The notes: generated from the letters alone by a model not told the origin. Numbered from the stretch's first letter, positions 28,150 through 46,735 are shown. The stretch is DNA of 64,000 bases from an uncultured Acidimicrobiaceae bacterium (GCA_963730395.1 CAVSSK010000004.1:194110-258109), one strand, 5' to 3'. Made by a program: numbers and translations.

Positions 28150-28875
28150 CTACAGGCCCATGCCCAGCCCACCGTCGACCGGCACCACGGCCCCGGTCAC
28201 GTAGGCGGCGGAGTCGGAGGCCAGGAAGCCGACCACGGCCGCCACGTCCCCGGGACGACCGGCTCGTCCCAGCGGCACCTGCCCGGTCATCACGGCGACC
28301 CGTTCGGCGCCCAGGGCGGTGGTCATATCGGTGTCGATGAGGCCCGGGGCGACCACGTTCACGGTGATCTGGCGGCTGCCCACCTCCCGGGCGATGGCCC
28401 GGGCCATGCCGACGAGGCCGGCCTTCGAGGCGGCGTAGTTGGCCTGCCCCGGGAGCCCCACGAAGGCGCCCACCGAGGACACGAAGATGATGCGCCCGGC
28501 GTGGAGCCGCAGCATCTTGGCCACGGCGCGCTTGGCGACCCGGAACGAGCCGGTCAAGTTGGCGTCGATGACGTCGAGGAAGGCCTGGTCGCTCATGCGC
28601 AGCATCAGCGAGTCCATGGTGATGCCGGCGTTGGCGACGAGCACCTCGACCGGGCCCCACCGCTCCTCGATCGCCGCGAAGGCAGCACCCACCTCGTCGG
28701 AGCTCCGCACGTCGCAGCGCACGGCCATGAAGCGCTCGGGGTCAGAGCCCTCGGGCGGGGGAGGGGCATCGTCCGAGCGGAACGTGGTGGCGACCCGGTC
28801 GCCGTTGGCCAGGAACCACGCGACGCAGGCGGCGCCGATGCCACGCGTGCCCCCGGTGACGAGAACGACGGCCAT
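28150..28875 (-). CDS. fabG: 3-oxoacyl-ACP reductase (SDR)
   Basis: ...VLVTGGTRGIG..., ...NAGI..., ...YAASKAG... The ATG overlaps the fabD stop (ATGA). Confidence 0.85.
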   Translation of the reverse strand: MAVVLVTGGTRGIGAACVAWFLANGDRVATTFRSDDAPPPPEGSDPERFMAVRCDVRSSDEVGAAFAAIEERWGPVEVLVANAGITMDSLMLRMSDQAFLDVIDANLTGSFRVAKRAVAKMLRLHAGRIIFVSSVGAFVGLPGQANYAASKAGLVGMARAIAREVGSRQITVNVVAPGLIDTDMTTALGAERVAVMTGQVPLGRAGRPGDVAAVVGFLASDSAAYVTGAVVPVDGGLGMGL

Positions 28876-30119
28876 CAGCGGGAGTCGGGCACCCGGAGCC
28901 AGGCGAGGGGCTGTCCCTCTTGCACCCGCTCTCCGTCAGCGGCCAGCCAGCGAATGACCTGGCCCGCGAACGGCGTGCGCACCTCGGAGACCCCGACCCG
29001 ACCCACGAGGTCGCCGACGGCGACGTCGGAGGGCGGCTCGCCGGCGCCGGCGTCGCCGCCCGTCCCGGGCAGCAGCCCCGTCCCCGGAGCCCGCAGGGAC
29101 GACTCCGGGCTGAAGATGCCGCTGGAGGGGCTGACCACGACCCGTTCGGACATGTAGAGGTGCTCGCCCTGGTGGAGCGCGGGCTCGGCGCGCCAGGTGC
29201 CGGCCGCGCCGATCTGGTCCATCAGCGTGTCGAGGTCCTCGGGCTTGGAGACGGCCAGTGACTGGATCTCGGGCAGGCTGCGCTTGGCCAACCCGCTGAG
29301 CACGCCGCCGGGGCCGAGCTCGACGAGGGACGTGAGCCCGAGGCCGGCGAAGGTCTCGAGCGTCTGGCGCCAGCGGACGGGGCTGCAGAGCTGGGCGGAG
29401 AGCAACCCCGGCCATTCGGCGGGGTCGTCGTGCACGTGTGCGTCCACGTTGGCCACCACGCGGACCTCGGGGGACATGAAGGTCACCTCGGCCAGTGCCT
29501 TGCGCAGGTCGGCGCGGGCGCCCTGCATCAGGGGCGTGTGGAACGCGCCCGATACCTGAATGGGCATGACGCGCTTCGCGCCGAGCCCCTTCGCCAGCTC
29601 GCCGGCCAGGGTCACGGCTTCGGCGGTGCCCGCGATGACGACCTGGCCGGGCGCGTTGTAATTCGCCACCCAGACGTCGCCCTCCGCACGCATGCAGGCC
29701 GCCTCGGCGTCGTCGTCCGCGATGCCGAGGAGCGCGGCCATCGTCCCCGGAGCCTCCTCGCCGGCGCGCGCCATGGACTCGCCGCGAGCGACCACCAAGC
29801 GGATCCCGTCCTCGAAGCCGAGGGCGCCGCTGGCCACCAGCGCCGTGTACTCGCCGAGACTGTGGCCGGCGCAGGCGGCCGGCGTGAGCCCGATCCGCTC
29901 CACCGCGTCGAGCACCACGAGGCTGAGCACGGTGGTGGCCAGCTGCGCGTTCTCGGTCTGGGTCAGCTCCTCGATCGGGGCGTGCAGCAGAAGGTTCGAC
30001 AGGTCACGCTCCGCAGCTGCCGAGGCTTCCTCGACCACCTCCCACGACGGGTGGTCGACCCATGGCTCACCCATACCGGCACGTTGCGATCCCTGTCCGG
30101 GGAAGGTGAAAACCAACAC
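28875..30119 (-). CDS. fabD: Malonyl-CoA:ACP transacylase fused to a C-terminal BCCP/lipoyl-like barrel domain
   Basis: ...VFTFPGQGSQRAGMG..., nucleophile ...GHSLGEYTAL..., ...VSGAFHT... Then a ~100-aa extension ...VVVSPSSGIF...VAVGDLVGRVGVSEVRTPFAGQVIRWLAADGERVQEGQPLAWL. Start is the GTG at 30119 or the ATG at 30170. Confidence 0.8.
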   Translation of the reverse strand: MLVFTFPGQGSQRAGMGEPWVDHPSWEVVEEASAAAERDLSNLLLHAPIEELTQTENAQLATTVLSLVVLDAVERIGLTPAACAGHSLGEYTALVASGALGFEDGIRLVVARGESMARAGEEAPGTMAALLGIADDDAEAACMRAEGDVWVANYNAPGQVVIAGTAEAVTLAGELAKGLGAKRVMPIQVSGAFHTPLMQGARADLRKALAEVTFMSPEVRVVANVDAHVHDDPAEWPGLLSAQLCSPVRWRQTLETFAGLGLTSLVELGPGGVLSGLAKRSLPEIQSLAVSKPEDLDTLMDQIGAAGTWRAEPALHQGEHLYMSERVVVSPSSGIFSPESSLRAPGTGLLPGTGGDAGAGEPPSDVAVGDLVGRVGVSEVRTPFAGQVIRWLAADGERVQEGQPLAWLRVPDSR

Positions 30120-30558
30120 GTGTCCGACGGCTCCGATCGACGGTGGGTGGAGGAGCCCACAGTGTGGCATGCCGACATGGCCCCGGCTCAAGTCCGCCTC
30201 GCGGCGTGCCGCCGGAGTCGCACCTCGGGTGCGAACCGCGACGGTATCGGGCGGCACGTCGCTGGTTACCGCTCGGAAACCGAGTGCGACGCGCGGTACG
30301 ACCGGTGGCGCATGGAGCCGGCGCCGCCGGGTCGGCTGGCGCGGTCCGCCTGCGGCGCAGGACGGTCTGCCCAGGCGCGTCCGAACCTCGCGCCACCCGC
30401 GGCGACGCCGTGCGCGCCTGCCGCCCGCCCTTGGCGTCGGGACCAACCAGCTCGTCCCCGGGCGCCGCGCCGCCGTTGTGACCCCGTTGTGGCGGGACCG
30501 GTCCCCTGGCCTCTGACCGGAGCGGGGCTGGGCGCGGGCGTTTCCAGTGGCCCCGTTT

Positions 30559-30580
30559 GGGAGGATTATCCTGTCCTCCC
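30559..30580. promoter_or_regulatory. Nested palindrome just upstream of the giant-gene start
   Basis: gggagga-ttatcctg-tcctccc (7-bp arms) enclosing aggat-t-atcct. The left arm is Shine-Dalgarno-like. Confidence 0.4.
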
Positions 30581-30591
30581 AGGGGGGGTCT

Positions 30592-33500
30592 GTGGGCGAC
30601 GGGCAGAGAGAGGTCCAACGAGCGGGCGGACGCTGGGCGCACCGCATGGCATCCGTGCTCCTCGGCGCGTCGCTCGCCATGGCGTCCACCGTGGCTCTCA
30701 GCGCGGCCGGCACGACGAGCGCGCCCGCCGCCGCACCCGGTCGCCAGTCGTTGCCCGGGAATGAGGGCCTTGTCCCTCCCGGGGCCACGTTGGTCGGCCC
30801 GGCGCCGTCGGGCACGACCCTGCCGCTCGTGGTCGCACTCCATCCGCGCGATCGAGCCGCGCTGGCGACGGAGGTGCAGGCGGTCTCCGATCCCCGCTCA
30901 CCCGAGTACCGCCACTTCCTGACGCCGGCACAGTTCGCACAGCGGTTCGGAGCGACCCAGCGCACCATCGCCCAGGTGACGTCCCTGCTCCGCAGCGAGG
31001 GCCTCACGGTCGGGACGCCCTCGTCGACCGGACTCTCGCTGCCCGTCTCGGGCACCGTGGCCCAGATCCAGTCCGCCTTCTCGACGCCGATCGCACGCTA
31101 CCGGCTGGCGTCGGGAAAGACGGGGTACGACAACAAGTCGGCCCCGGAGGTGCCGGTCACGGTGGCGCCGCAGATCGAAGGAATCCTCGGACTGAACACG
31201 CTCAGCCCGCCCCAGCCGTCGACGACCCTGCCGCAGGCGAGCCTCGTCAACCCGCACAGCCCTTCCTCCACTGCGGCGCCGGCGCTCGCTCCCGGACAGC
31301 CCTCGCCGCAGTCCGGGTCTTGCACGACGTCCATCAGTTCGGTCCAGACCTCGTACGGCGCCCTCGATGCCGTCCAGTTGGCGCAGGCGTACTCGTTCGA
31401 CCCGCTCTACACCGCCAACCACTACGGCGCGGGGACCACGGTCGCCCTCCTGGAGATGGCCGATGCCGACTACAGCTCGACCGACATCAGCAATTTCGCC
31501 AACTGCTACGGCATCACGCTCGGTGGGTCGCAGATCACGAGGAAACCCGTGGACGGAGGCACGACCACGGGCGGCGCCACCGTGGAATCGGAGCTCGACA
31601 TAGAGAACGTGCTCTCCCTGGCGCCGAAGGCGAACATCGAGGTCTACGAGGGCGCGGCGTCGGACAGCATCTACAACGTCTTCAGCCGGATCGTCAGCGA
31701 CGACACGGCGAGGATCGTGAGCGCGAGCTGGACCAACGGCTGCGAGGCGTACGTGCCAGCGTCCTACCAGGCTTCGGAGAACACGCTCTTCCAGGCGGCG
31801 GCCACCGAGGGGCAGTCGATCTTCGTGGCCTCGGGGGACCAGGGGTCGCAGGGCTGCAACATCAACGGCGCCATCAAGGCGACGACCGGCTCGGATCCCG
31901 TCGCCCAGGCCGTGGACCCCTCCACGGGCACCCTCTACATCGCCAACAAGTCCGACGGCACGGTCAGCGTGGACAGCGAAGGAGGCGCCAACGCATACAA
32001 CGCCGTACAGGCGAGCACGGTGTCCACCGGGTCCGGTCCCGATGCGGTCGCACTCGATCCTTCGGTCGGCAACGTCTACGTGGCCAACGCCGGAAGCAGC
32101 AGCCTCACCGTGTTCTCGAAGAGCGCATGCAACCAGACGAACACGGGTGGCTGCAGCTCGACGACGACGATCCTTTCGGGCGGCCACCTCAGCTCGCCGG
32201 CGGCGCTCGCCGCCTACGGGTCGACGCTCTACGTGGGGAACGGCAACGGCACGGTCGCGGTGTACAGCGTCTCGGCTTCGGCGGCCACCTGGGTGGCGAC
32301 GGTCAACCTCCTCTCGGCCTCCGCGCCCAGCGCCCTCGCGGTCGACGCGGTGAACGGTTTGGTGTACGTCGCCGACAAGAACAACGGCAGGGTCGAATAC
32401 TTCAACGCGACGACCTGCAACGCGGGCACGACCACGACGTGCGCCTCGGCACCGAGCTCCGTCTCCGTCGGCAATACTCCCGTCGCGCTGGTCGTGGCCA
32501 GCGGTGCGGGCGACCTCTACGTGGCCAACGCGGGCACCGGAGGGGGGATCTCAGTTGTGAGCTTGGCCACCCACCTGGTGGTCAAGACCATTCCCACCAG
32601 CCAACCCGGCAACGGGACGGGCCTGGTCCAGTCCATCGGCCTGTCTCCCGACGCCAACGAAGTGCTCGCCGTGCTGGTCGGCTTGGGCTTCCCCGGGGAC
32701 GTGATGGCGACGATCAACACCTCGACCCAATCGATCAGTTCGACGGTCGGACTGGAGAACGGCTCGGACAACATGGGCCAGTTGGTGAGCGACGGCACCC
32801 TGGGCTACGCCTGGGTCACCGACACCAATGGAGGCGACATCGTCCAGAACCTGAATCTGGGCGTCTCGGACCCGGCGAGCCAGCCCTACGTCACGGCCGT
32901 CGGCGGCACCTCGGTCACCGCCCTGGGCCCCGCCCCGACCGAGAAGGTGTGGAACGACCAGCTGAACTACTCGGAGGGTGCCGGCGGGGGCGGCATCTCG
33001 CGGACCTTCTCCATGCCGGGGTACCAGCAGCCGATCGGCACGGTCAGCGGCAGCAGCGGCACCCCGTGCGCCAACTCGAGCGGTGACTGCCGCGAGGTCC
33101 CCGACGTGTCGGCCGACGCCGACCCGAGCACCGGTTACGTCATCTATGACTCCGTGAACGGGCTCGGCTGGAATGCGCTGGGCGGGACCAGCGGTGCCGC
33201 ACCCCTGTGGGCCGCCGTCCTCGCCGTCGTCGCTTCGGCGGACGGCAACACCGCCGGCTACGGCGCGCTGAACCCGACGCTGTACGAGCTGGCGCAGAAG
33301 TCGCCCGGCATCCTACCTCAACGACGTCACCTCGGGCAACAACGACTACAACGCGACCAACGGCGGCCAATTCCCCGCCATGGCCGGGTACGACATGGCA
33401 ACCGGCCTCGGGACGCCCGTGGCGTCCCAGCTGGCCTCCGGGCTCACGGGCCTCGCCCTCAACGTGGTGGTCTCGGGCTCCCAGACCTACGGAGGGTCCC

Positions 33501-36500
33501 CGGCCTTCACCGCAGCGGCCAACTACGCCGGCTCCGGGGGACTGCCCTTCGGCGTCACTCTCATCACCAGTGGGCTCACCTGCACCACGGTGGGCACCTC
33601 GACCCCCATCGGCCCGGCCCTGGCGGTGGGGAGCTACACGCTGGCGTCCACGTCGTGCAGCGGGGCGACCCTCTCGGGCCCCAACGGAGCCGACTACTCC
33701 ATCGTCTACACGAGCGCCGCCAACGACTTCACGGTCAGCCCGATCCTCGTCGACGTCGCCGTGTCGGGCACACAGACCTACGGCGGAACGGCGAGCTTCG
33801 CGGGCGCCGCCAGCCCCCCCTCGGGCATCACGGTGAACACGTCGGGCCTCAGCTGCACCCAGGAAGGTGCCTCCACGAGCATCGGCCCGACGCTGAGCGT
33901 GGCGAGCTACACCCTCGTCACCACGTCGTGCAGCGGGGCGACCCTCGGGGGCACCAACCCCGCCGACTACGCCGTCGCCTACACGAGTGCGCCGAACGAC
34001 TTCACCGTGACACCCGCTCCGCTCACGGTCACCGCCTCGAGCCCGAGCATGACCTACGGCGGCTCCGTCCCCGCCATCACGGCCGGCTACTCGGGCTTCG
34101 TGAACGGCGACACGGCGGCGTCGCTCACCACCCGGCCGACCTGCTCGACCACGGCGACCAGCTCGAGCCCGGTCTCGCCTCCGACGTACCCGTCGTCGTG
34201 CGGGGGCGCGGTGGACCCCAACTACTCGTTCAGCTACGTCGGGGGCTCGGTCACGGTGCACGCGGCCACCCTGACGATCACCGCCTCCAGCCCGAGCATG
34301 ACCTACGGGGGCTCCGTCCCCGCCATCACGGCCGGCTACTCGGGCTTCGTCAACGGCGACACGGCGGCGTCGCTCACCTCCCGGCCCACCTGCTCGACCA
34401 CGGCCACCAGCTCGAGCCCGGTCTCGCCTCCGACCTACCCGTCCTCCTGTGGCGGGGCGGTGGACCCCAACTACACCATCGGCTACGTCTCGGGCGCGGT
34501 GACGGTGACCAAGGCACCGCTGACGATCACCGCCTCGAACGGCTCCATGACCTATGGCGGGTCGGTGCCGACCATCACGCCGGCCTACACGGGATTCGTC
34601 AACGGCGACGGCGCCACCTCGCTGTCCACCCCACCCGTCTGCACGACCACGGCCACCAGCTCGAGCCCGGTCGCCGGCTACGCCTCGTCGTGCACCGGAG
34701 CCGCCGACCCCGATTACTCCATCAGCTACGTGGCGGGCACCGTGACGGTGACCAAGGCCCCGCTGACGATCACCGCCTCGAACGTCACCATGACCTACGG
34801 GGGCCCGGTGCCGAACGTGGTGGCGGGGTACACCGGGTTCGTCAACGGCGACACGCCCGCGTCCCTCACGACCAGGCCGACCTGCACGACGACGGCCACC
34901 AGCTCGAGCCCGGTGTCCGGGTCTCCCTACGTCTCCTCGTGCAGCGGCGCCGCGGACCCCAACTACGCCATCGGCTACGTCGCGGGCTCGGTGACGGTCA
35001 ACCAGGCTCCGCTGACGATCACCGCCTCGAGCCCGAGCATGACCTACGGCGGCTCCGTCCCCGCCATCACCGCCGGCTACTCGGGCTTCGTGAACGGCGA
35101 CACGGCGGCGTCGCTCACCACCCGGCCCACCTGCTCGACGACGGCCACCAGCTCGAGCCCGGTCTCCGGGTCGCCCTACGCGTCCTCGTGCGGTGGTGCC
35201 GTCGACTCCAATTACGCCATCAGCTATGTCGGTGGTGCGTCACGGTCGCCACGGCCGCGTTGACCATCACGGCGTCGGGCGGCTCCATGACGTACGGCGG
35301 CGCACCGCCGACCATCACGCCGCTCTACTTCGGCTTCAAGAACGGCGACAACGCCTCGTCCCTGACGCTGCAGCCCACCTGCTCGACCACGGCCACCAGC
35401 TCGAGCCCCGCCTCGGGCTCGCCGTACCCGTCGTCGTGCAGCGGGGCCACCGCATCGAACTACTCCATCTCCTACGTGACGGGCGGAGTGATGGTGAACA
35501 GGGCCCCGCTGACGATCACCGCCTCGAGCGGCTCCATGACGTACGGCGGCGCACCGCCGACCATCACGGCGGGCTACTCGGGATTCGTCAACAGTGACTC
35601 GCCCTCCTCCCTCACGACACCGCCCTCGTGCACTCCCACGGCCACCAGCTCGAGCCCGGTCTCGGGCTCGCCCTACGTGTCAGCGTGCAGTGGCGCCGTG
35701 GACCCCAACTACGCCATCAGCTACGTCGCCGGCTCGGTCACGGTCAATGCGGCGACACTGACGATCACCGCCTCGAGCCCGACGATCACGTACGGCTCCG
35801 TCCCCGCCATCACGGCCGGCTACTCGGGCTTCGTCAACGGGGACACGGCGGCGTCGCTCACCACCCGGCCGACCTGCTCGACCACGGCCACCAGCTCGAG
35901 CCCGGTCTCGCCTCCGACGTACCCGTCCTCCTGTAGCGGGGCAGTGGACCCGAACTACACCATCGGCTACGGGGGCGGGTCGGTGACGATCGACCAGGCG
36001 CCGCTGACCATCACGGCCTCGAGCCAGACAACGACGTACGGGTCCACCCCGACCGCCGTCACGGCCTTGTACTCGGGCTTCGAGAACGGCGAAAGCGCCG
36101 CGTCCCTGAGCGCGCCGCCTTCCTGCGCGACGACGGCCACCAGCTCGAGCGCACCCGGGACCTACCCGTCCTCGTGCACGGGCGCCCTGGACTCCGACTA
36201 CACCATCACCTACGTCAGCGGCACCACGACGGTCAACCCGGCCCCGGTCACCGTCACCGTCAGCGGCAGCCAGGCCAACGGGGGATCGCCGAGCTTCGCC
36301 GCCGCGGTCAGCCCGCCGGCGGGCGTCGCGGTCGACACCAGCGGATTGACCTGCAGCGAGGTGACGCCGGCCACGCCCATCAGCGGCACGTTGCCCAACG
36401 GCACCTACACGCTGGTGGCGGGATCGTGCCAGGGGGCGGCGCTCTCGGGCGCCAACGCCGCCGACTACACCGTCGTCACCGCCAGCTCGTCGGGTGACTT

Positions 36501-37348
36501 CACCGTGACGGGCGCGCCGACCCCGCCCCCGCCTCCGCCTCCACCACCGCCGGCGCCCCAGCACGGTTACTGGCTGGTCGGTTCGGACGGAGGCATCTTC
36601 ACCTTCGGTTCCGCCCTCTTCTACGGCTCGACCGGCAGTCTCAGGCTCCAGCGCCCCGTGGTCGGCATCACGCCGACGAAGGACCGAGGAGGCTACTGGT
36701 TGGTCGCGTCGGACGGCGGGACCTTCGCCTTCGGGGACGCCGGCTTCTACGGCTCCATCCCCGGGCTCGGGCTGCACCCGGCCGGATCGGGTCTGCCCAA
36801 CAGCCTCAACGCGCCCATCGTCGGGATGGTCCCCGCCGCCGACGGCCAGGGCTACTTCGTGGTGGCGTCGGACGGAGGAGTCTTCGCGTTCGGACCGGGT
36901 GCGAGCTTCGCCGGGTCCTGCCCCGGCATCGGGGGCTGCTCGGGACCGGCCGTGTCGGTGATCCCCGACTCGACCGGGAACGGGTACTGGCTCTTCACCA
37001 GCACCGGGAACGTCTACAGCTTCGGTGATGCTCCGACCCTCGGCAGGCCCCGGCGCCGTGGGCTCGCCCGTCACCTCGGCCGTGCGCACGCCGGACGGAA
37101 AGGGCTACTGGGTCCTCGTCGCCAACGGCACGCTGTACGCCTACGGCGACGCCGTCAACGAAGGCAGTCCCGGGGGCCAGTTCGGCGGTCTCGATCCGGC
37201 GTCCGCGGTCTTCACCACTTCCGACGGTGCCGGCTATTGGATCGTCAGCGCCGCCGGTGCGGTCGATCCCTACGGCGACGCCCCCAACGACGGGGGGATG
37301 GCCGGTACACGGCTCAACGGCGCCATCATCGCGGCCAGCGGCTTCTGA
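30592..37348 (+). CDS. Giant secreted multidomain protein. Domain order: signal peptide, S53 pro-domain, sedolisin (S53) peptidase with an inserted beta-propeller, MBG-type repeat array, poly-Pro linker, GYW repeat module. The true frame switches 3 times (possible pseudogene or assembly error).
   Basis: Pro-kumamolisin-like N-terminus (...SDPRSPEYRHFLTPAQFAQRFG...). Catalytic motifs ...ESELDIEN..., ...ASGDQGS..., ...GGTSGAAPLWAA... The C-terminal S53 motif ...LNDVTSGNNDY...MAGYDMATGLGTP is only in the frame of ORF 33380..35263. The track ORF 30547..37443 stays open only because of the high GC. Start is the GTG at 30592 or the ATG at 30646. The true stop is at 37346-37348 in the frame of ORF 37025..37348. 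Confidence 0.75.
31861..32862 (+). other. ~334-aa YVTN-type beta-propeller-like insertion inside the S53 catalytic domain
   Basis: Six blade-like units: GTLYIANKSDGTVSVD, GNVYVANAGSSSLTVFS, STLYVGNGNGTVAVYS, GLVYVADKNNGRVEYFN, GDLYVANAGTGGGISVVS, EVLAVLVG..GDVMATIN. They lie between ASGDQGS (oxyanion Asp) and DPASQPYVTAVGGTS. Confidence 0.65.
33460..36515 (+). repeat. Coding tandem array: 3 long variants (SGSQ.YGG...TSGLTC...ADY.V.Y) and 9 copies of an ~81-aa MBG-type repeat
   Basis: Recurring APLTITASSPSMTYGGSVPAITAGYSGFVNGDTAASLTTRPTCSTTATSSSPVS..Y.SSC.GAVDPNY.I.YV.GSVTV with a period of ~243 nt. Several copies are nearly identical at DNA level (for example 34021.. versus 35002..). Confidence 0.85.
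36559..37345 (+). repeat. C-terminal module of 6-7 repeats 'GYWLV(A/G)SDGG(I/V/T)F(A/T)FG(D/S)A.F.GS'
   Basis: [89 protein letters not shown]..., KGYWVLVANGTLYAYGDAV..., AGYWIVSAAGAVDPYGDAP... It is preceded by the linker APTPPPPPPPPPPAP. Confidence 0.8.
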
Positions 37349-37426
37349 ACCCTCTCCCAGCGATCGCCCCCGGGGCAGATCGGGCACTGACTCTCGGTCG
37401 GCGCCGCCCGGGTCACCGCGGCGGGG

Positions 37427-38890
37427 TCAGGAAGCGCCCGTAGGAGCGAGTGACGCCACACAACCCTGCAGCGCCGCCACACCCGCAGGGTTGGCATTCT
37501 GTGGGCTCGCCGTCGATGACCCCGCCGGGACGGTGGTCGAGGTGGTCGTCGTCGACGGGACCGTCGTCGTGGTGGTGCTCGGGGGAAGCGTGGTCGACGG
37601 CACCGTGGTCGTCGGCACCACGATCAACGGGATCGTGGTGCCCGTGGTCCCGGGGACCGTCGTCGTGGTGGTCGTCGACGGGACGGTCGTGGGGGCCGTC
37701 GGGGCCGTGGGCGGAGTCGTGCTGATGCCGGCGGGGACGGTGGTCGTGGTCGACGGCACCGTGGTGGTCGTGGTCGTCGACCCGGTCGGCGCCGCCCCGG
37801 TGGGCGTGGGCGCCGTGATGGCCACCGTGGTGCAGGCCCCGGCCGTCTGCAGTGTCGCCACGTCAGCCACCATCTTGGTCAGTGAACGGCGCTCGGCGTC
37901 ATTGTCGGATGCCAACGTGAACGCGGCCTGGGACACCGCCCGGGCGGCGTCGTCACGGCGCGCGAGCGAAGTCTTGACGGCCGCAGTGGCGTCCTTCTCG
38001 CTCGCGAGCAAGTCGGCCGCCGTGATGCTCAGGTACTGCTGAGCGACGACGCCGTCCGCATCCTGCGGGCTGTGCGGGTTCACCCCGTCGCCGAGATTCG
38101 AGAGAGAGGCGCTCGAGTACAGGCCGCTGCTCACGTACTCGTCGACTGCAAACCGTCGGAGGGCGCGGGACGCGGCGTCCGATCGGGTCTGCGCCGCCGA
38201 CACCTGGGATTCCACCGCCGCCAATTGCTGGGTCCGCGACGTCATCACACCCTGGTCGGCGACCACGGCGGCGACGGCGCGCTGGTAGTCGTGCAGGTCC
38301 GCCGTCACGTTCCCGTAGACGTCGAGCGCCGACGAATGGGACAGCACGCCGGGGAGGCCGCCGGCGACACCGAGCACCGCGTTCGCGTAGCACGGCACTC
38401 CGTCCGCGGACGGCGCGCACCACGCGCTCTGGTCGACCACGGCCAGGAACGCTCCCGGCGGTGCGACGGTCCCGGCCCGCAGCGCGGACGTGATGGGCCA
38501 CATGTTCGGCTGGAACAAGGTGGTCACGGTCGCCGTGCAACCGGCCTGCCAGGTGGCAAAGGCGGGGAACCCGTTCGCCGACACCACTCCGGGGATCGGA
38601 GCCCCACTGGCGTCGGTCATCCGCCGCGTGTTGAAGGGGTTGTACGCCGCCGTGTTGTTGGTCGATCCGCCCTCGGCGGCCTGCCATTCATCGAGATCGG
38701 TGACGTTCTGAGCCGTCGCCGGTGCGGTGACGCCCTGGAGCACGCAGAGCTCCCAGCCTGGCGGCAGGGGAGTGTCGCCGACCGTCTGGGCTGCTGCGTC
38801 CCCGCCGGCTGTCCACGAGAGCGCGCACCCGGACAGGGCCGCCGTCGCCAGGGCCAGGGTGAGTCCAACGATTCGGGCGGTGCGTGTCAT
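37427..38890 (-). CDS. Lipoprotein with a conserved N-domain, a coiled-coil region and a Thr/Pro-rich C-terminal tail
   Basis: Signal and lipobox MTRTARIVGLTLALATAALSGC. Long helical segment ...QQLAAVESQVSAAQTRSDAASRALRRF... The tail is TTTTTVPSTTTT-type low complexity. Confidence 0.6.
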   Translation of the reverse strand: MTRTARIVGLTLALATAALSGCALSWTAGGDAAAQTVGDTPLPPGWELCVLQGVTAPATAQNVTDLDEWQAAEGGSTNNTAAYNPFNTRRMTDASGAPIPGVVSANGFPAFATWQAGCTATVTTLFQPNMWPITSALRAGTVAPPGAFLAVVDQSAWCAPSADGVPCYANAVLGVAGGLPGVLSHSSALDVYGNVTADLHDYQRAVAAVVADQGVMTSRTQQLAAVESQVSAAQTRSDAASRALRRFAVDEYVSSGLYSSASLSNLGDGVNPHSPQDADGVVAQQYLSITAADLLASEKDATAAVKTSLARRDDAARAVSQAAFTLASDNDAERRSLTKMVADVATLQTAGACTTVAITAPTPTGAAPTGSTTTTTTVPSTTTTVPAGISTTPPTAPTAPTTVPSTTTTTTVPGTTGTTIPLIVVPTTTVPSTTLPPSTTTTTVPSTTTTSTTVPAGSSTASPQNANPAGVAALQGCVASLAPTGAS

Positions 38891-39202: not shown

Positions 39203-40297
39203 CTATCCGTTGTGAGCCAGGAAGACGGACTGGAGCGACGGGCTGGCGGCGAGCGGCTGGTCACCGTTCTGCGTGCCCCAGGAATAGGCATAGTCAAAGA
39301 CGGGGGTTGGAACCAGCGACTCCCACGTCGCCAGGATTGCGGACTCTTGGGCGGCGGTCGGGAGTTGGTAGGAGCCCCCTCCGTCGTCGACCCAGGCGCC
39401 GCCGCCGAACGCCTGGTACACGGGCACGATGTCGGCCAGCGGGATGCCGGCCGCCTCCGCCGCGGTCACCGCGAGGCCCAACCAGGAGTACGCGCAGGGA
39501 GCGGAGGCAGGGTTCTCCGAGCGGCACGGATACGGATCGAGCCCGTACAGGTCGATGTCGCTGTTGGCCGGGTTGTAACCGCCCTGATAAGTCGGGTGGT
39601 TGGAGCTCGACAAGTCCAATTCGATGATGAAGGTGTAGGTCCCGGGATCGTTCGCATGAATCCAATCCGACTCCGCCTTCAGGTTCGCCGCGCTGCAGGA
39701 GGATGGGTTGGGTTCGTCCATGAGGTAGAAGCCGAAGACCTTGGGATCGCCGACGAAGCTCTGGACGGTCGACTGGAACGACGGGGTCGCACCATCGCAC
39801 GATCCGATCCACACGAGCCCTTTGACGCCCGCAGGGAGCGCCGCCACGAGATCGTTCGAGGACACGTCGGCAACGTTGAACCCGTCGGCGCCGGGCACAT
39901 AGGTCGACCCTGAGAGGTTCCCGTTCGCGGTGAAGTGCTCGGACGTGTGCGGACCACTCGGCGCCGGCGCAGGTGCGGGAGGAGCGGGAGGCGCGGTCGT
40001 CGCCGTCCTCGGGGCCAGCGTGCTCTTGGTGGGGGGCAGCGTGGTCGTCGTGGGGGCAACGGTGGTCGTCGTGGGGGCCAGGGTCGTTGTGGTCGGGGGA
40101 CGAGAGGTCGTGGTGGAGGCTCTCGGGGCGGCGGTCACCGCTCGCTTGGGGGCCACGGAGTTCCCGTCATGGAACGCCAAGGCGTAGGCACCGAGCAGCA
40201 CGATGGCGGCAAGCAGTGCGCCGCCGACCCATTTCACGGACGCGGGGACGCCAGCCATGACACCGCTTCCTCCCTGGTCGTCCATCTCTGGATCCAT
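39203..40297 (-). CDS. Membrane-anchored extracellular protein, possible glycoside-hydrolase-like TIM-barrel domain
   Basis: N-terminal TM helix (WVGGALLAAIVLLGAYAL), a Thr/Pro-rich linker, then ...GLVWIGSCDG...VFGFYLMDEPN... The function is a guess. Confidence 0.45.
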   Translation of the reverse strand: MDPEMDDQGGSGVMAGVPASVKWVGGALLAAIVLLGAYALAFHDGNSVAPKRAVTAAPRASTTTSRPPTTTTLAPTTTTVAPTTTTLPPTKSTLAPRTATTAPPAPPAPAPAPSGPHTSEHFTANGNLSGSTYVPGADGFNVADVSSNDLVAALPAGVKGLVWIGSCDGATPSFQSTVQSFVGDPKVFGFYLMDEPNPSSCSAANLKAESDWIHANDPGTYTFIIELDLSSSNHPTYQGGYNPANSDIDLYGLDPYPCRSENPASAPCAYSWLGLAVTAAEAAGIPLADIVPVYQAFGGGAWVDDGGGSYQLPTAAQESAILATWESLVPTPVFDYAYSWGTQNGDQPLAASPSLQSVFLAHNG

Positions 40298-40529
40298 CCG
40301 TGATTCCCCCCGGGCTCCGCCGATGTCCTAGCAACTTTCTCATCTGGCAACCAGCGTCTGGTTGATGGCAGGCGGTGGCGTGGTCGCCGCCGTGCAGGCC
40401 GATCTCGCCGTCGTTCGAGCGACGCGGCCCCGTTAATTGCGTCGAAGCGAGCCGTGACCAGCGGTGATGACCCGGTCGGTTTGGTAGACCCTCGTGGTCG
40501 CCTGATCTGCGAGGGCACGCGCCGACACG

Positions 40530-40551
40530 GTGCCCGGAGCGGGACTCGAAC
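40530..40551. repeat. Distal 22-bp direct repeat identical to the 3' end of tRNA-Leu(CAA) (att-like island boundary)
   Basis: gtgcccggagcgggactcgaac at 40530-40551 equals 51906-51927, in the same orientation. Confidence 0.75.
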
Positions 40552-40851
40552 TCCCGTCGTAGTAGTGACGGCGAGTGATGAGGAATCCGGCTCAGTCCGC
40601 CTGACCAGCATGTCCGCATTCCGGGGGAGGGGAGTCGGGTTGTCCTGTCCGGGTCGGTTATGGGGCGTTTGTGACCACTCTTGTGACCAACTAGCCGGTA
40701 GCGGGTCAGTTTGAGCCGGGGGGTAATCCGGCGGGGCGGAAATCTGATGGCGCGTCACTCAGGTGCCGGGCCGCGGCTTTGCGCCTAAAGCCCTGGCTGC
40801 ACCGCAAGTCTGACTCCTGCATCAAAAACCCTGCATTCGTAGGCTCTGAAA

Positions 40852-41685
40852 ATGCAGAACGCCGTCACCTTGGTCGTCGGCATTGTCGCGGGTCTCGCCC
40901 TGATCGCGTTGGGTGTGCGCTGGGCGGAAGATCGGCAATCCAAAAAGGCGCCCCGCCCAACGCCAGCCGAGCCGAAAAACTGGTTTCGTCACCTTCAATC
41001 GAAAACCCCAGCGCTGGTTGGTGAAGTGGGTACTTACCTCATTGCCGGTGGGATTGGTGCACTCTTGGCCTGGTATGGGGCGGTCAGTGCCAGCTTTCAG
41101 CCCCACAAACTTCACTACGTCGCCGCCGCATCAGTAATAGCGGTAGGGGCGGTCGTAGTCGGTGTCATTCTGCGGGTCGTCGGGGGTAAGGACAACGCCC
41201 TCATCCGGGAACTTCGGGCAGAAATCGAACGCCTTTGGGCGGCCCTTGCACCCAAGGGTGCCGCGTCGTGGTCCACGGTTCCCGGCGTCGCCGCATCGGT
41301 CGGCGCTACCGGCGCTACTGGACCCATTCCGCTACCGGGGCCGCAGAGTTCCACTGGACCACAGGGACCCGCCGTAAGCAGTGAGAACCGCTACATAAGT
41401 GGTGGCATCGTCGGTGGCATTATTCGTCCGCTCGGTTCCGCAGGACCCACTGGGCCACAAGGGGGAGTTAGTCATCCGACCGGCCCCCCGCGTTCCATCG
41501 AGACAACAGGGCCGTCCTCGGATCAGCCGATCGACGCTCAGGAAGTCAAAGCTCGTGAATGCTCGCGATCCGCACGCACAAGTTGTAGGCGATCACTTTG
41601 CACAGAACCTCGGGAGGTCGAGCGGGATCGGGGGACCGGGGAAAACGATGGGAGAAATAGTCAAGACCTGTGGATGAGAATCTGA
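40852..41685 (+). CDS. Membrane protein with short collagen-like G-X-Y runs; the last codons are replaced by the IS insertion
   Basis: Three or four TM helices, then GATGATGPIPLPGPQSSTGPQGP and GSAGPTGPQGGVSHPTGPP. The reading frame runs into the IS256 element at 41652. Without the IS it would end ...GENDGSA*. Confidence 0.5.
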   Translation: MQNAVTLVVGIVAGLALIALGVRWAEDRQSKKAPRPTPAEPKNWFRHLQSKTPALVGEVGTYLIAGGIGALLAWYGAVSASFQPHKLHYVAAASVIAVGAVVVGVILRVVGGKDNALIRELRAEIERLWAALAPKGAASWSTVPGVAASVGATGATGPIPLPGPQSSTGPQGPAVSSENRYISGGIVGGIIRPLGSAGPTGPQGGVSHPTGPPRSIETTGPSSDQPIDAQEVKARECSRSARTSCRRSLCTEPREVERDRGTGENDGRNSQDLWMRI

Positions 41686-43070
41686 CGGACTACGCGGCGA
41701 CCTCTTCGTTCAGCTCTTCTGATCGCTCGACCATCACCCCCTTCTCGAACGTCGCGCCGGCACGAACCAGCGCAACGAGGTGCGGTGCGTTGAGGGCTCG
41801 CCAGCGGGACTGGGCCGACTCGATCAGCTTGTAGGCCATGGCCAGTCCGGCCGCCCGTGAGCCCGGTCCCTTGGTCACCTTGGTGCGAAGGCGCACCGTG
41901 GCGAAGGTGGACTCGATCGGGTTGGTGGTTTTCAGATGCACCCAGTGCTCGGCGGGGAAGGCGTAGAAGGCCAGCAACTCCTCGCGGTCCTTTTCGACCT
42001 TCTCGGTGGCCTTGGGCCACTTGGCCTCGTAGTCCTTCACGAACGCGTCGAGCGCCTTCTCGGCGTGGTCCCGGTCCTCGGCGTCACGGACATCGCAGAG
42101 CGCGGCCCGGGCGGCCGGCTGGGCCGATTTGGGCAGGGCGTTCATGACGTTGGCCATCTTGTGCACCCAGCAGCGCTGGTGCGCCGTCTCGGGGAAGACC
42201 TCGGTGAGCGCACCCCAGAAGCCGAGGGCCCCGTCGCCGACGGCGAGGACCGGGGCGCGCATGCCCCGGCGTTTGAGCCCACGCAGCACGTCGGCCCACG
42301 ACTCGGTCGACTCGCGGTGCCCGTCGGTGATCGAGACCAGCTCTTTGGTCCCGTCGGCGCGCACACCCACGATGACCAGGGCACACAGGCGGGCCTCCTC
42401 GAGGCGGACGTTGAAGTGGATGCCGTCAACGAAGAGGTAGACGTAGTCGACGTCTTTGAGGGACCGGTGCGCGAACTGGTCGCGCTCGCGCTGCCAGTCG
42501 GTCGTCAGCCGGGTGATCACCGAGGCCGAGAGCCCGGCGGCGGAGCCGAAGAACTCCTCGAGGGCGGGGACGAAGTCGCCCGAGCTCATCCCGTGGAGAT
42601 ACATGAGCGGGAGCACCTCGGCCACCTTGGGGGACTTGCGGGCCCACGGCGGCAGGATCGAGGAGCGGAAGCGGCATGCGTTCCCCGGTCTCGTCGTCGA
42701 CCCGGCGGTCGTCGACCCGCGGGGCCCGGACCTCGATCGGTCCTGCCCCGGTGACCAGCGAGCGGGGCTCGGCGTGCCCGTTGCGCACGACCAGGCGATG
42801 CCCGTGTTCGTCGACCTCGTGGGTCAGGCTCGAGATGTAGCCGTCGACCTCGGCCTCGAGGGCGGCGGCCAGCATCCGCCTCGCACCCTCGGCCACGAGC
42901 TCGTCCAGCCCGCTCGACAGCTCCGCGCTCGCGGCCTCCTCAACATGTACTCTCAACATCGGCGTTCCTTCCTGCCAGCGTCTCACCGCCGGCGAACTTG
43001 TTTTGGTCAAACAGGAAGGTACGCCGCGCCTCCGTTCAGGTGGTGCATCCACAGGTTTCGGTTATAACTC
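41652..43070 (-). mobile_element. IS256-family insertion sequence (~1.42 kb) with imperfect terminal IRs and a 9-bp target duplication
   Basis: Ends GAGAAATAGTCAAGACCTGTGGATG (left) and GAGTTATAACCGAAACCTGTGGATG (right, reverse complement). Flanked by aaacgatgg at 41643-41651 and 43071-43079. Confidence 0.75.
41690..42959 (-). pseudogene. IS256-family transposase, frame broken near 42673
   Basis: The N-terminal part MLRVHVEE...LVAEGARRMLAAALEAEVDGYI...RLVVRNGHAEPR...DDETGERM is in one frame. The rest, RFRSSILPPWARKSPKVAEVLPLMYLHGMSSGDFVPALEEF...(311-aa ORF), is in another. The junction reads ATG-C-CGC-TTC. Confidence 0.8.
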
Positions 43071-43838
43071 AAACGATGGGTCGGCGTGAGTCAGGGCGCC
43101 ACTGGGCGCCGCGCCCGCCATCCTCAGAGCGGCTCACGAGTTGCTGCCAGCGGTGAACCGTTGCTGTTAAAGGCCCTACGGTGTGAAACCGACAGCGACA
43201 AGGGACTGCTCGCCTTTAGCAGCGGGCTGTGCACGTGTGAGCGGCTGTGAACTACGAGCAACATTGGCGTGGAGCGCTGCCATCTGTAGCTTTTAACGCC
43301 GCGAAGAAAGAGCGAATGGCGTGGTCGCAGAGGAGACTCGTCTTGATCGCGATGGAAGCGATCGAACGTCAGACCTCCGCTCTCGAAGAAGTTGCTGATG
43401 ACGATTCTGACGTAGAGGGAACGCAGGGATGAGGCCGCGGATCGCCCGTGAGTGGCCCCTGATTTGCCGTAGAGCCGTCGAAGAACACGGCGTGGCGGCA
43501 GCGTCCCAGCATCACAACGTGCATCCCTGACCAATGACACTGACGACTGGATCGTGCCAGTGCCGTGGGATTCCACACGGTGGGCCAGTGGCGTCGGGAC
43601 GGTTGATGTCCGGCAAGAGTGCGCCAGGGCCGGAAATGACTTCCGACCCTGTGCTGCAGGGGTTGCGTGCATCACGATGCAAGCAGGGCTTCGGTCAAGA
43701 TGACCGTCGTTTCGCTCACGCCCATTCAACAAAGAGCCAGGTGTCGTGTGGGGACATTCAAAGGCGGCTCAAAGGAAACGAACTCGCATGACAACTGTGG
43801 AGCCAACTCCGACCACTTCGGGTCGTCATGTGTCCAGC

Positions 43839-43880
43839 GGGGCGGCTGTGTCAGCCGGGGCGGCTGTGTCAGCCGGGGCG
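43839..43880. repeat. Tandem 18-mer ggggcggctgtgtcagcc, 2.3 copies
   Basis: Read directly: two perfect copies at 43839-43856 and 43857-43874, plus a partial third. Confidence 0.8.
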
Positions 43881-44092
43881 ACAACATACAACCAGCTTCA
43901 TTCCGTTCGCTATAAGACCCAGGCTGGCCTGGACTCTTCGCAGGGGAGAATCAGACCAAGGCCATACAACGAGCATTAGTGGAACTGAACGGAAGCGGAT
44001 TGAAGGTCGTGGCTGCAGTCACGGACCGGTGGTCGTTCTGGAAGAGATTGGGGTGCGTGTTGCTGGTCGTTGTCAAGACCAACCCCAAAAGC

Positions 44093-44269
<177 letters not shown>

Positions 44270-44270
<1 letters not shown>

Positions 44271-44511
44271 GCTCACCAATTACGCCAAGAACATCCACGT
44301 TGTAATTCGGATCGAGAAGTTGATGTATCGCAGGAGTCGCAAGGACCGTGATCGAATCCCCGTCAAACACCACGCTGGGCTTCCTCGCTCCCGGGCCGGC
44401 AGCAGAAAGGAAGATCGCAAGTGCGAGCAACCATCTCACAGAGTGCGCAGCGCTATCCGGAGTGACCCCATGCCGACCCCGCCCCCGTACGATGCTCCTA
44501 TGGGTTGTCAA
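44270..44511 (-). pseudogene. N-terminal fragment of an SGNH/GDSL hydrolase running into the homopolymer
   Basis: ...RWLLALAIFLSAAGPGARKPSVVFDGDSITVLATPAIHQLLDPNYNVDVLGVIGER (signal peptide plus GDS block I), then only poly-Gly from the poly-C tract. Confidence 0.5.
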
Positions 44512-45557
44512 GCCCTAATTTCTCGTGAGGTAGGAGGCTGAACACCTCTCGGGCGACATAGCGCTTCAGACATCGCACCGCCTCTTTCTTGGTGAGCCCT
44601 TCTTTCGTCCGTCGATCGATGTACTCGGTGGTGCGCGGGTCATAGACCATGCGGGTTATCACGATGTGCCACAGAGCCGAGTTGGCCTGGCGATCACCGC
44701 TGCGGTTGAGCCGGTGTCGCTCCTGCTTGCCGCTGCTGGCTTCGATCGGTGAGGCACCGCAGAGATGAGCGAAGGCCGCTTCGTCGCGCAGGCGCTCGGG
44801 ATTGTCGCCGGCGGTGACGAACAGTGCCGAGGCGGCGTCGGTGCCCGACGCCGAGAGCGCCGACGAGTCGCGGGGCGGTCTCTATGACCAAGGGCTTGAG
44901 GATGGCGTCGATCTCGGAGATCTCCTCTTCGAGGGTGATGGCCCGCCGGGCCAACATCCGAAGACTGAACTTGGTGAGCGAGACGATGTCGCGCTTGGCC
45001 CCGGGTCGATAGGCCGAGGCCCGCTCGAGGAGATGGAAGACGTTGAGGCCCCGGAGCTCGGTGCGGATGGACTCGGGCGCGGTCGAGATCAGGCTGCGCA
45101 TCTGGTTGAGTGCCTGGGTCCGGCCCTTGCGCGCCGAGAACCTCGCGACGCGCAAAACCCGCATGGATTCGACGTTTCCGTCCCTCGTCTTGGCTTCACC
45201 GCAGGCGTCGCCCGAGAGGGCGGCACGGGCGGCCGAGATGGCGTCTTGGGGGTCGGACTTGCCCTTGCGCCGGCGGCGCTGGCGGTTGGGACGATCGACT
45301 TCGACGACGCGGACCCGCTCGGCCTGGAGGTGGCGGGTCAGCCCGGCCCCATAGGAACCGGTCCCTTCGACCCCGACCAGCTCGACGGGGCCGAAGTCGC
45401 TCAGCCACCCCAGCAACTTCTTGTAGCCGCTCTCGGTGGTGGCGAAGCTCTCGACACCGAGGAGGGCTCCTCGTTCGTCCAAAGCCGCAGCTACATGGAC
45501 GTCGAGGTGCGTATCGACCCCGCCGGTGATGCTCCGTGCCAAATTGGTCACTGTCAT
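44498..45557 (-). mobile_element. IS110-family transposase gene (element ends not determined), frame broken near 44843
   Basis: N-terminal DEDD domain ...GGVDTHLDVHVAAALDERG...VGVEGTGSYGAGL... The C-terminal part I translated in another frame: TDAASALFVTAGDNPERLRDEAAFAHLCGASPIEASSGKQERHRLNRSGDRQANSALWHIVITRMVYDPRTTEYIDRRTKEGLTKKEAVRCLKRYVAREVF...*, with its stop at 44498-44500. Confidence 0.8.
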
Positions 45558-45923
45558 CCCTTCGTTGGATTGGGTTGGGGTGACACCGCACCTGCGGGAC
45601 GACGGACAAGACAGCGACGGGCCTGTTTCAGGCAGGCTCCTATTAGGTCACTCCGTCCGACCGGTGGGTGTCGAGTGGGTGACCGGGCCAGGCCGACGGA
45701 TCGTACGAAGGACAGTCCGAAAGGACGTCAGCCGGTTAGTTGGAGTCAGACCTGGCCTGGGCACCCACCCACACGCTGACCAATCCATTCACCGAAGTGG
45801 TGGATCATCCAGCGGCCACTTCAATCCTCGCTGCCGGTCCGGGGTGCGCCTCTGCGGTAGGACGGAGACTACTCTCGGAAGCGGAGACCTCGACTGATCA
45901 GACGACACATTGAGGAGCATCAG

Positions 45924-46199
45924 ATGGCAAGGGTATTGATGGTTGTGCAGCATCCCGTGAAGGACTTTGACGCTTGGCGGATCGAATATGACAAGGCGCA
46001 ACCGATACGTGACAAGCACGGGGTCACCGACGCCACCGTCTTTCGGAATGCCGATGATCCGAACGAGATTACGGGGCTGCACTGGTTCTCTTCGGTCGAT
46101 GAAGCTCACGCCTTCGCCGACGATCCCGATCTGAAAGACGCCATGGCTAGAGCGGGCGTGAGCGGACCACCCCGCATCGAAATCAGCGTCGAGGTGTAA
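45924..46199 (+). CDS. Small ferredoxin-fold (ABM/Dabb-like) protein
   Basis: 91 aa, MARVLMVVQHPVKDFDAWRIEYDKAQPIRDKHGVTDATVFRNADDPNEITGLHWFSSVDEAHAFADDPDLKDAMARAGV. Family assigned from memory of similar sequences. Confidence 0.5.
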   Translation: MARVLMVVQHPVKDFDAWRIEYDKAQPIRDKHGVTDATVFRNADDPNEITGLHWFSSVDEAHAFADDPDLKDAMARAGVSGPPRIEISVEV

Positions 46200-46245
46200 T
46201 ACCGACCGGCGCTTGATCGAACTGTCGAAGGAGATCTGTCGAAAT

Positions 46246-46296
46246 CAGCCGTTTGAGGCAGAGGTTCACCCGTAGGCCCCTGCCCACAAACGGCTG
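46246..46296. terminator. Long hairpin between convergent genes (bidirectional terminator candidate)
   Basis: cagccgtttg ...31 nt... caaacggctg (10-bp perfect arms) with inner ggcag/ctgcc pairing. Confidence 0.4.
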
Positions 46297-46390
46297 TGTC
46301 CTCAAGCACCATAGGGGCAGTGGGTCGTCGAACGAGGACCGATTGGGTCGGCAGAGCCGCTTCTCCCGTGACGGGAGGGAGTGCGGCAGC

Positions 46391-46735
46391 TCATTTCGAT
46401 TTGTTCAGGCGGTGACGGAGCTGCCAGATGCGTAGTGACGCCACGATCCCAGCCAGCAGTACGCCACCGACCACTGCAAGGAGGAGAGCAACGCCGAGCG
46501 GCATGTGCACACTCCCGGTGAAGAAGGTCACCTTCACCGACTGGCTGTTCTGGATGATGAAGACCAGCAGGAACACCAGCACCACGACGCCGACGATCAC
46601 GCCTACCCAGACTCCGGAGATTCGGGTGCGTCCTGTTGGACTTCCCGGAGCAGGTGTCGTAAGATCGGGCTCATTCGGCACTTCGGCAGGCTGGGGGGTG
46701 GATGCACCGTCCGACGCTGGAGACTCCTCACTCAT
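46391..46735 (-). CDS. LapA-domain (DUF1049) membrane protein
   Basis: ...GVWVGVIVGVVVLVFLLVFIIQNSQSVKVTFFTGSVHMPLGVALLLAVVGGVLLAGI... Confidence 0.65.
   Translation of the reverse strand: MSEESPASDGASTPQPAEVPNEPDLTTPAPGSPTGRTRISGVWVGVIVGVVVLVFLLVFIIQNSQSVKVTFFTGSVHMPLGVALLLAVVGGVLLAGIVASLRIWQLRHRLNKSK

Follow-up and report, generated by a model that had tools for sequence, protein, structure and literature searches.

A large S53 peptidase of an uncultured Acidimicrobiaceae bacterium with a beta-propeller in its catalytic domain, a repeat array and a C-terminal GYW module

The S53 gene and its reading frame

The DNA analyzed here, referred to as the window, is a stretch of 64,000 nt from an uncultured Acidimicrobiaceae bacterium (GCA_963730395.1, CAVSSK010000004.1:194110-258109). 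At 30592-37348 it carries a gene, designated the S53 gene, which after three single-base corrections encodes a protein of 2251 amino acids (aa) starting from GTG at 30592, the same start as that called in the homologues P0002 and P0026; residue numbers are counted from this codon. An earlier note on this DNA had described one unit consisting of a signal peptide, an activation domain, an S53 catalytic domain, repeats, a Pro linker and a C-terminal repeat module. The corrected single open reading frame (ORF) contains all of these, and the S53 motifs, the run of ten Pro and the six GYW repeats are readable in the translations at the coordinates given below.

30592-37348, plus strand: whole S53 gene, 2251 aa after three 1-nt corrections, GTG start
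30592-30711, plus strand: Sec-type signal peptide (about aa 1–40), with a basic n-region and hydrophobic MASVLLGASLAMASTVALSAAG, read by eye
30781-31200, plus strand: pro-kumamolisin activation domain (aa 64–203), from Pfam PF09286, TPP1 alignment and Foldseek
31312-31866, plus strand: N-terminal half of the S53 catalytic domain (aa ~241–425), with E332 and D336 (ESELD) and oxyanion D416 (SGDQG)
31867-32856, plus strand: 7-bladed YVTN/NHL-type beta-propeller (aa 426–755), beginning 10 residues past the oxyanion Asp
32857-33445, plus strand: C-terminal half of the S53 catalytic domain (aa ~756–950), with nucleophile S867 (GGTSGAAP) and the Ca-site GYD934MATGLGTP; holds indel 1
33311, plus strand: indel 1, one T too many (GGC A[T]CC TAC); Gly-Thr-Tyr is encoded here in seven orthologues, by GGCACCTAC or GGGACGTAC
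33464-34015, plus strand: two divergent repeats of ~90 aa, type A (VSGSQTYGG...DFTV; aa 958–1141)
34022-36252, plus strand: nine MBG_2 (YGX-type) repeats of 81–83 aa each (aa 1144–1887)
35239-35240, plus strand: indel 2, one G missing after 35239 (GCGTC in place of GCG GTC), at the boundary between repeats
36253-36528, plus strand: third type A repeat, from a hidden Markov model (HMM) built from the window repeats
36520-36561, plus strand: Pro-rich hinge with ten consecutive Pro (TPPPPPPPPPPAPQ), from the translation
36562-37345, plus strand: GYW module (261 aa, residues 1991–2251), six GYW repeats, a predicted six-bladed beta-propeller; holds indel 3
37046-37047, plus strand: indel 3, one G too many (AGGC in place of AGC), from orthologue alignment

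A search with the head protein revealed more than 40 full-coverage homologues with 63–88% identity; at least 20 of those inspected show every part of the layout and terminate in ...LNG(S/A)IIAA(T/S)GF. A scan of species-representative genomes showed the family to be present almost entirely in uncultured Acidimicrobiaceae metagenome-assembled genomes (MAGs). By frame-aware tblastn, 22 loci were found to contain one ORF extending from the head to the GYW terminus, in Illumina as well as Nanopore assemblies. With at least 22 intact syntenic orthologues the full architecture is conserved and the segments are not separate genes, nor is the gene a pseudogene devoid of orthologues. The layout might in principle have been created by misassembly, with the head, repeat array and GYW module of different genes or paralogues joined across the repeats, which are up to 90% identical in DNA, and these genomes contain GYW modules in multiple copies; but the parts follow each other in the same order, within a single unbroken ORF located at the syntenic position, in each of 22 independent assemblies produced by both technologies, which effectively refutes such an origin, leaving it a negligible chance. 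That the head is an S53 peptidase and that the whole architecture constitutes a single protein is almost certain. The suggestion of the earlier note that this architecture is undescribed holds for the literature, in which our search found no description, but not for the databases, where hundreds of uncharacterized and unannotated MAG proteins already have the layout.

The mechanical ORF of this region (30547-37443, plus strand) makes sense only in parts, the remaining ~45% being Arg-rich text typical of out-of-frame high-GC DNA, and it was rejected as the protein; it stays open because such DNA, when read out of frame, lacks stop codons. The missing parts were recovered by translating the neighboring frame, the true frame switching three times, and each switch was pinned to one base by alignment with orthologous DNA. 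At indel 3 all orthologues are one base shorter than the window, the close orthologues L001 and L002 reading GAAGCCCC and GGCAGCCCC (Gly-Ser-Pro) and others having Ala (e.g. GGCGCCCCC). Three single-base edits restore a clean ORF of 6756 nt (2251 codons) with a single stop at its end, bearing out the frame-corrected protein which the earlier note had implied.

These three indels are probably consensus errors of long-read sequencing and not real lesions. Downstream of each indel, the segment runs for 0.3–1.9 kb without a stop in its own frame and aligns without gaps to the orthologues. Relative to the closest relative, L001, the ratio of nonsynonymous to synonymous substitution rates (dN/dS) amounts to 0.30 for the head; for the GYW module it is 0.05 before indel 3 and 0.20 after it, as compared to 0.09 for FabD. 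Furthermore, the frame-broken homologues in the databases all come from ENA/NCBI 'MFD' MAGs, whereas every JGI/Illumina-derived homologue inspected was intact. The MFD MAGs are Nanopore-only assemblies that received one round of Medaka polishing (PMC12313526). In a census of frame changes at 41 syntenic loci, the unique parts of the S53 gene had 52 in 145 kb (0.36/kb), and the fab, SGNH and lipoprotein genes on either side had 55 in 210 kb (0.26/kb). Since the essential fab genes of these sister Nanopore MAGs are broken at a similar rate, such breaks are mostly assembly noise.

Several observations weigh against this explanation and would suit a genuine, very recent pseudogene, in which case the only possible product would be truncated at ~920 aa and lack the end of the catalytic domain. 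The indels of the window are not randomly distributed: three lie in 6.8 kb and none in the ~45 kb of surrounding housekeeping genes, and a scan of the phase of GC content at third codon positions detected no other stop-free frame switch on the same strand in the high-GC housekeeping part of the window. Two of the three indels are outside long homopolymers. The IS256-like and IS110-like transposase ORFs of a low-GC island in the window also appear by eye to be out of frame, and the clustering of the indels also fits real decay of dispensable genes. Frame breaks are sometimes locally clustered in the sister MAGs as well, four loci (L044, L053, L054 and L059) having 4 to 6 frame changes in the S53 gene while their fab neighbors are intact. 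However, the stop-free downstream segments, the dN/dS values still between 0.05 and 0.3 and the broken fab genes make true inactivation the unlikely alternative; the indels, if real, are very recent.

Programmed frameshifting or phase variation, by which the stalk and anchor would be toggled, was also considered, for many database homologues leave the frame in the repeat region and two of them (P0007 and P0014) do so at the same point, 'YT|ERGG'. This was rejected as highly improbable: i) the three sites of the window are shared by no orthologue, ii) they contain no slippery or homopolymeric tract, iii) the enzyme would be destroyed by a shift at one of them, which falls within the catalytic domain, iv) the flanking essential genes of the same MAGs show a similar rate of frame changes, and v) the inspected Illumina-derived homologues are all in frame. 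The break shared by P0007 and P0014 may be a systematic long-read or basecalling error.

About half of the closest database 'proteins' (P0001, P0002, P0005, P0007, P0014 and others; loci L044, L048 and L052-L057) are chimeras consisting of a correct N-terminal part followed by hundreds of Arg-rich out-of-frame residues, which arise because high-GC DNA stays open past an indel. The practical lesson is that long-read MAGs yield frame-shifted chimeric entries for about half of the nearest 'proteins' of a family such as this one.

Protease head, inserted propeller and repeat array

The predicted signal peptide falls in a region (residues 1–48) which is disordered in the AlphaFold2 (AF2) model, with a predicted local distance difference test (pLDDT) score below 50. 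It is followed by the activation domain, detected by Pfam Pro-kuma_activ (PF09286) at 6.6e-29 (101.4 bits against a cutoff of 23.5) and aligning to the prodomain of human TPP1. TPP1 as a whole aligns to the head in three collinear pieces, namely the prodomain, TPP1 225–370 and TPP1 378–509 (6.7e-15 by phmmer against PDB), leaving residues 427–759 of the query, i.e. an insert of ~333 aa, unmatched. With the insert in place, Peptidase_S8 of Pfam was not detected, whereas splicing it out gave 40.8 bits (cutoff 21.8; 2.2e-10), so that the S53 regions predicted in the earlier note pass their profile thresholds.

The head has the Ser-Glu-Asp triad and oxyanion Asp of the serine-carboxyl peptidases of MEROPS family S53 (E-x3-D, SGDxG and GGTSxxxP) as well as their pro-domain and fold. 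E332, D336, D416, S867 and D934 are invariant in an alignment of 36 sequences that includes insert-less S53 proteins, as are G938 and G940 of the Ca-site motif; at the sequence level, the Asp of the Ca2+ site (G-x-D-x-x-T-G-x-G) is present in GYD934MATGLGTP. Foldseek with the AF2 model of the head returned pro-kumamolisin (1t1e) as the top match at 1.6e-23, and kumamolisin (1gt9) aligned across the insert with a target-normalized TM-score (TMt) of 0.78. Overall pLDDT of this model was 72.5 and its predicted TM-score (pTM) 0.52, with the C-terminal half modeled at only moderate confidence.

The insert (residues 426–755, bounds set by alignment) is missing from the closest insert-less relatives (P0095-P0108). 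It matched Pfam NHL with 39.6 bits (cutoff 20) and Lactonase with 32.5 bits (cutoff 21.7). Sub-cutoff matches were obtained to the YncE and PQQ-propeller models of NCBIfam, and in PDB the insert matched the YVTN propeller of an S-layer protein from an archaeon (1l0q) at 3.6e-7. In the AF2 model it forms ~28 strands between residues 428 and 753 with pLDDT of 85–95, and Foldseek matched it to YncE (TMt 0.76) and to RACK1-type propellers. The gap in the TPP1 alignment, the YVTN match, the insert-less relatives and the modeled fold together bear out the beta-propeller that the earlier note had placed within the catalytic domain. More distant relatives (38–57% identity) retain the insert but have other C-terminal parts (Kelch, TIG, fn3, InlB B-repeat or Ig/He_PIG), whereas the nearest insert-less S53 proteins, from Solirubrobacterales and others, are ~820 aa long and consist of Pro-kuma, S53 and He_PIG. 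The insert has two conserved Cys-bracketed loops, TCN(Q/A)(T/S)xxxGC, at ~32100-32500 (aa ~515–530 and ~605–620), which are found again in the orthologues and may be surface loops stapled by disulfides.

In the subtilisin fold, the loop following the oxyanion residue borders the S1 pocket and is the place where PA domains are inserted in S8 subtilases. The junctions between the propeller and the catalytic halves have pLDDT below 50 in a model with pTM of only 0.52, which counts against a defined position of the propeller over the cleft; therefore, no claim is made on its placement. The insertion of a whole propeller into an S53 catalytic domain is genuinely new, our full-text literature search having found neither a sedolisin or kumamolisin with a propeller insert nor any description of S53 enzymes in Acidimicrobiia.

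Downstream of the head, the ~12 MBG repeats counted in the earlier note resolve into nine bona fide MBG_2 units and three divergent repeats of ~90 aa (type A), for which no significant family match was found; the latter are probably Ig-like and akin to MBG/YDG. The MBG_2 array was detected by Pfam as 9 stretches (2.4e-123) and by Tandem Repeats Finder as a 249-nt unit in 8.9 copies at 34019-36221, with 69–90% pairwise DNA identity between units. As the same note had indicated, ten Pro precede the C-terminal module; the orthologues have Pro-rich linkers of variable length at this position. Using HMMs built from the window repeats, 0 to 13 MBG_2 units and 1 to 7 type A units were counted in the 22 intact orthologues, which range from 1281 to 2618 aa in length, so that the window protein with 2251 aa is no outlier. 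We lean slightly towards a stalk of variable length, or surface display, as the meaning of these repeats; against this it must be set that the variation in repeat number is seen between species, among 22 species-level MAGs.

The GYW module and the genes around the S53 gene

The six GYW repeats at the C-terminus, already recognized as a repeat module in the earlier note, are conserved in the orthologues. In an alignment of 23 sequences the mean column identity of the module was 86%, which is higher than that of the head, and a Cys pair (GSCPGIGGCSG) is conserved. AF2 modeled six blades (pLDDT 78.6, pTM 0.79), with the terminal strand (IIAA) closing the ring onto blade 1, and Foldseek matched generic propellers only, with query-normalized TM-scores (TMq) of at most 0.62 and ~10% identity. 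Profile searches of Pfam, NCBIfam and PDB gave no significant sequence match to the module. An assignment to RCC1-like repeats was rejected (RCC1_2, 19.2 bits against a cutoff of 22).

The module is abundant, recurring in thousands of further exoproteins from this lineage. A GYW profile matched 7999 of 8000 pre-filtered candidates from a set of 5.8 billion sequences, and a representative library of 1.84 billion sequences (50%-identity clusters) gave 19,723 matching clusters at E <= 1e-3, of which 9,271 reached E <= 1e-30. In many of these clusters the module is complete (260 aa) and forms the very C-terminus, and a cluster look-up of GYW proteins returned only 'hypothetical protein'. Ten proteins with such a C-terminal module were found to carry unrelated passengers, namely Peptidase_A4 with six Big_3_5 or with TIG, four TIG, a PQQ propeller with fn3, MBG_2, and Flg_new. 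Two of them, P0301 and P0318, have an eqolisin-type acid peptidase (Peptidase_A4) on a Big_3_5 or TIG stalk and end with the same GYW propeller; judged from the sequences, a second acid-active protease family may be presented on the same display chassis in these bacteria.

A second GYW protein is encoded in the window at 60022-61620 (minus strand), with an N-terminal signal or transmembrane segment, 5 to 6 repeats 40–54% identical to the module of the S53 gene, and then a Beta-lactamase2 domain (class-A beta-lactamase-like; Pfam 4.4e-9). It would fit a link to the cell wall if, as for many proteins of that fold, the substrate of this domain were related to peptidoglycan.

Being constrained, situated C-terminally behind a Pro hinge and common to many exoproteins with Ig-like stalks, the GYW propeller may be a cell-envelope anchor, a reading to which we give just under an even chance. 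Against it stands the finding that the S53 protein, which ends in ...IIAASGF, has no LPXTG or transmembrane tail and that searches of Pfam, NCBIfam and PDB revealed no known wall-binding domain; therefore, anchoring is argued from distribution and conservation alone, and the module could equally be a lectin binding a ligand or substrate, or a secretion signal. A specific form of this alternative, which we consider rather unlikely, is that the protein is released and the GYW module docks as a lectin-like or targeting module on an external substrate, for instance polymers of plants or fungi or the cells of others, with the repeats serving as spacer or extra binding sites. The lack of a known wall-anchoring motif would agree with release, as would the presence of GYW in many different secreted enzymes, in the manner of carbohydrate-binding modules, and the frequency of propellers among lectin folds, the module itself having a sub-threshold match to a fungal agglutinin (E 0.09). 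However, the module accompanies peptidases, Ig-like arrays and PQQ propellers and not glycoside hydrolases; its conservation between species far exceeds that of the heads, in keeping with a self-ligand; a rigid stalk of variable length with a Pro hinge is a hallmark of anchored Periscope proteins and cell-envelope proteinases; and the second GYW protein has its repeats close to the N-terminus, adjacent to the membrane or signal segment, with the beta-lactamase-fold domain after them. For these reasons envelope anchoring is preferred over release.

The S53 gene is monocistronic, with fabD divergent upstream and a lipoprotein gene convergent downstream. In ~45 MAGs the order is the same: SGNH-like, fabF, acp, fabG and fabD on the minus strand, the S53 gene and the convergent lipoprotein gene. 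The neighbors on the other strand, which the earlier note took to be secreted or anchored proteins, are so only downstream, those upstream being fabD, fabG, acpP and fabF. The lipoprotein-like gene at 37427-38890 (minus strand), syntenic with the S53 gene in ~40 MAGs, has a signal ending in ...LSGC and a long Thr/Pro-rich C-terminal tail, and its product had no match in Pfam. It adjoins a gene at 39203-40297 (minus strand) for a protein with a transmembrane segment and a Thr/Pro linker, function unassigned, which is 90% identical in L001. On the other side, FabD (28875-30110, minus strand) has a C-terminal extension, unusual for FabD, with a weak biotinyl/lipoyl-like match (Biotin_lipoyl, 0.0046, under the cutoff).

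A low-GC island at ~40000-52000 (59–66% GC versus 70–74% elsewhere) adjoins a tRNA gene (51907-51989, minus strand) and is probably an integrated or degraded mobile region. It includes an IS256-like transposase split over two frames (41690-43052, minus strand) and an IS110-like transposase running out of frame (44694-45557, minus strand), both families being assigned by eye. At ~44120-44270 a (CCN)n/(GGN)n microsatellite would read as ~45 consecutive Pro on the plus strand and as poly-Gly on the minus strand. The low-GC part at 46-52 kb was tried as a ribosomal RNA operon and rejected, Rfam finding only the tRNA.

Proposed function and comparison with known systems

Taken as a whole, the protein is reasonably likely to be a stalked, surface-displayed pro-sedolisin of soil Acidimicrobiaceae, i.e. 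an S53 counterpart of the cell-envelope proteinases with a Periscope-like build. It would be exported as a pro-sedolisin by the Sec pathway and displayed away from the cell, the pro-domain being removed autocatalytically at acidic pH if activation proceeds as in kumamolisin and TPP1, and the head would then degrade extracellular proteins and thereby feed the cell. By analogy with the PA domain of S8 subtilases, the inserted propeller would lie beside the S1 side of the cleft and may dock substrates or restrict their access. The MBG array would act as a 'Periscope' stalk of variable length, and the GYW propeller would tether the protein non-covalently to a conserved component of the cell envelope.

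Such a design has precedents in the S8 cell-envelope proteinases and in Periscope proteins and is not categorically new; what is genuinely new is the propeller insertion in the S53 domain, together with the abundant, unclassified GYW propeller. The finding of a conserved sedolisin clade in abundant uncultured Acidimicrobiaceae of soil and peat indicates that the S53 fold accepts a whole propeller. If confirmed, this would extend to S53 the hot spot for domain insertion in the subtilisin fold, and would give the Periscope class an environmental example headed by an enzyme. Together with the Peptidase_A4 heads on the same chassis, it suggests a way for these bacteria to harvest protein nitrogen in acidic soils. 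The GYW module, a by-product of this analysis, may matter more: with ~20,000 clusters, no counterpart in Pfam, NCBIfam or PDB and very strong constraint, it is a candidate wall-anchoring module. A bolder proposal, which we regard as doubtful, is that GYW is an unrecognized, lineage-wide domain for envelope anchoring or export sorting that replaces sortase/LPXTG, and that the S53 protein is the first sedolisin with propeller-controlled access to its active site. If true, thousands of exoproteins would use this surface-display system of Acidimicrobiia, and the head would be a convergent counterpart of PA-domain subtilases and propeller-gated S9 peptidases.

The closest relatives among characterized enzymes are the sedolisins (kumamolisin and pro-kumamolisin, 1gt9 and 1t1e; sedolisin; human TPP1, 3ee6 and 3edy), with which the window protein shares the PF09286 pro-domain, the subtilisin-like fold, the triad with the oxyanion Asp and the Ca-site motif. 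Characterized sedolisins are compact, single-head acid peptidases made as precursors of ~550–590 aa. To this plan the S53 protein adds a 330-aa propeller inside the catalytic domain and ~1300 aa that comprise both the stalk and the C-terminal propeller.

The S8 cell-envelope proteinases of Gram-positive bacteria (lactococcal PrtP/lactocepin, streptococcal C5a peptidase ScpA, and SpyCEP), which share clan SB with S53, follow the same logic, with a signal and pro-peptide, an interrupted catalytic domain, an Ig/Fn-like rod and a C-terminus near the wall. In ScpA the PA domain is inserted between the oxyanion residue and the catalytic Ser, which is topologically the same position as that of the propeller. 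Nevertheless, the window protein does not belong to this group: its catalytic set is that of S53 (Glu/Asp and not His/Asp), its insert is a propeller and not PA, no PA domain being found by Pfam, and it has no LPXTG sortase signal. The hosts also differ, the window family occurring in environmental Acidimicrobiia and the S8 proteinases in Firmicutes. For the latter, an inserted domain in a catalytic domain of subtilisin fold, an Fn-like rod, a protease atop a high structure and attachment to the wall have been described (PMC7783315).

Periscope proteins (SasG, Rib, Sgo_0707 and CdrA, the last with MBG_2) have the same arrangement of a near-identical tandem array between an N-terminal head and a C-terminal module, and MBG_2 was itself defined from Periscope stalk repeats (Whelan et al. 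2021, PMC8201768). The highly similar tandem folded domains that characterize them are present here as the nine MBG_2 units with their 249-nt period. They differ from the window family in having a head that binds host ligands, variation at the strain level and wall attachment, as compared to an enzyme head, variation between species and a putative attachment.

Peptidases of family S9 (prolyl oligopeptidase and DPP-IV) likewise combine a 7-bladed propeller with a serine peptidase and may provide a model for substrate restriction, as a functional analogy only. Their catalytic fold is the alpha/beta-hydrolase, unrelated to that of S53, and their propeller forms a domain of its own, at the N-terminus or in the middle, that covers the triad, whereas that of the window protein sits inside the catalytic domain. 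Finally, the insert is best matched, in sequence and in structure, by the YVTN/NHL propellers of the Methanosarcina mazei S-layer protein (1l0q) and of E. coli YncE (3vgz); these stand alone or are N-terminal in surface proteins, whereas the propeller of the window protein is inserted into an enzyme.

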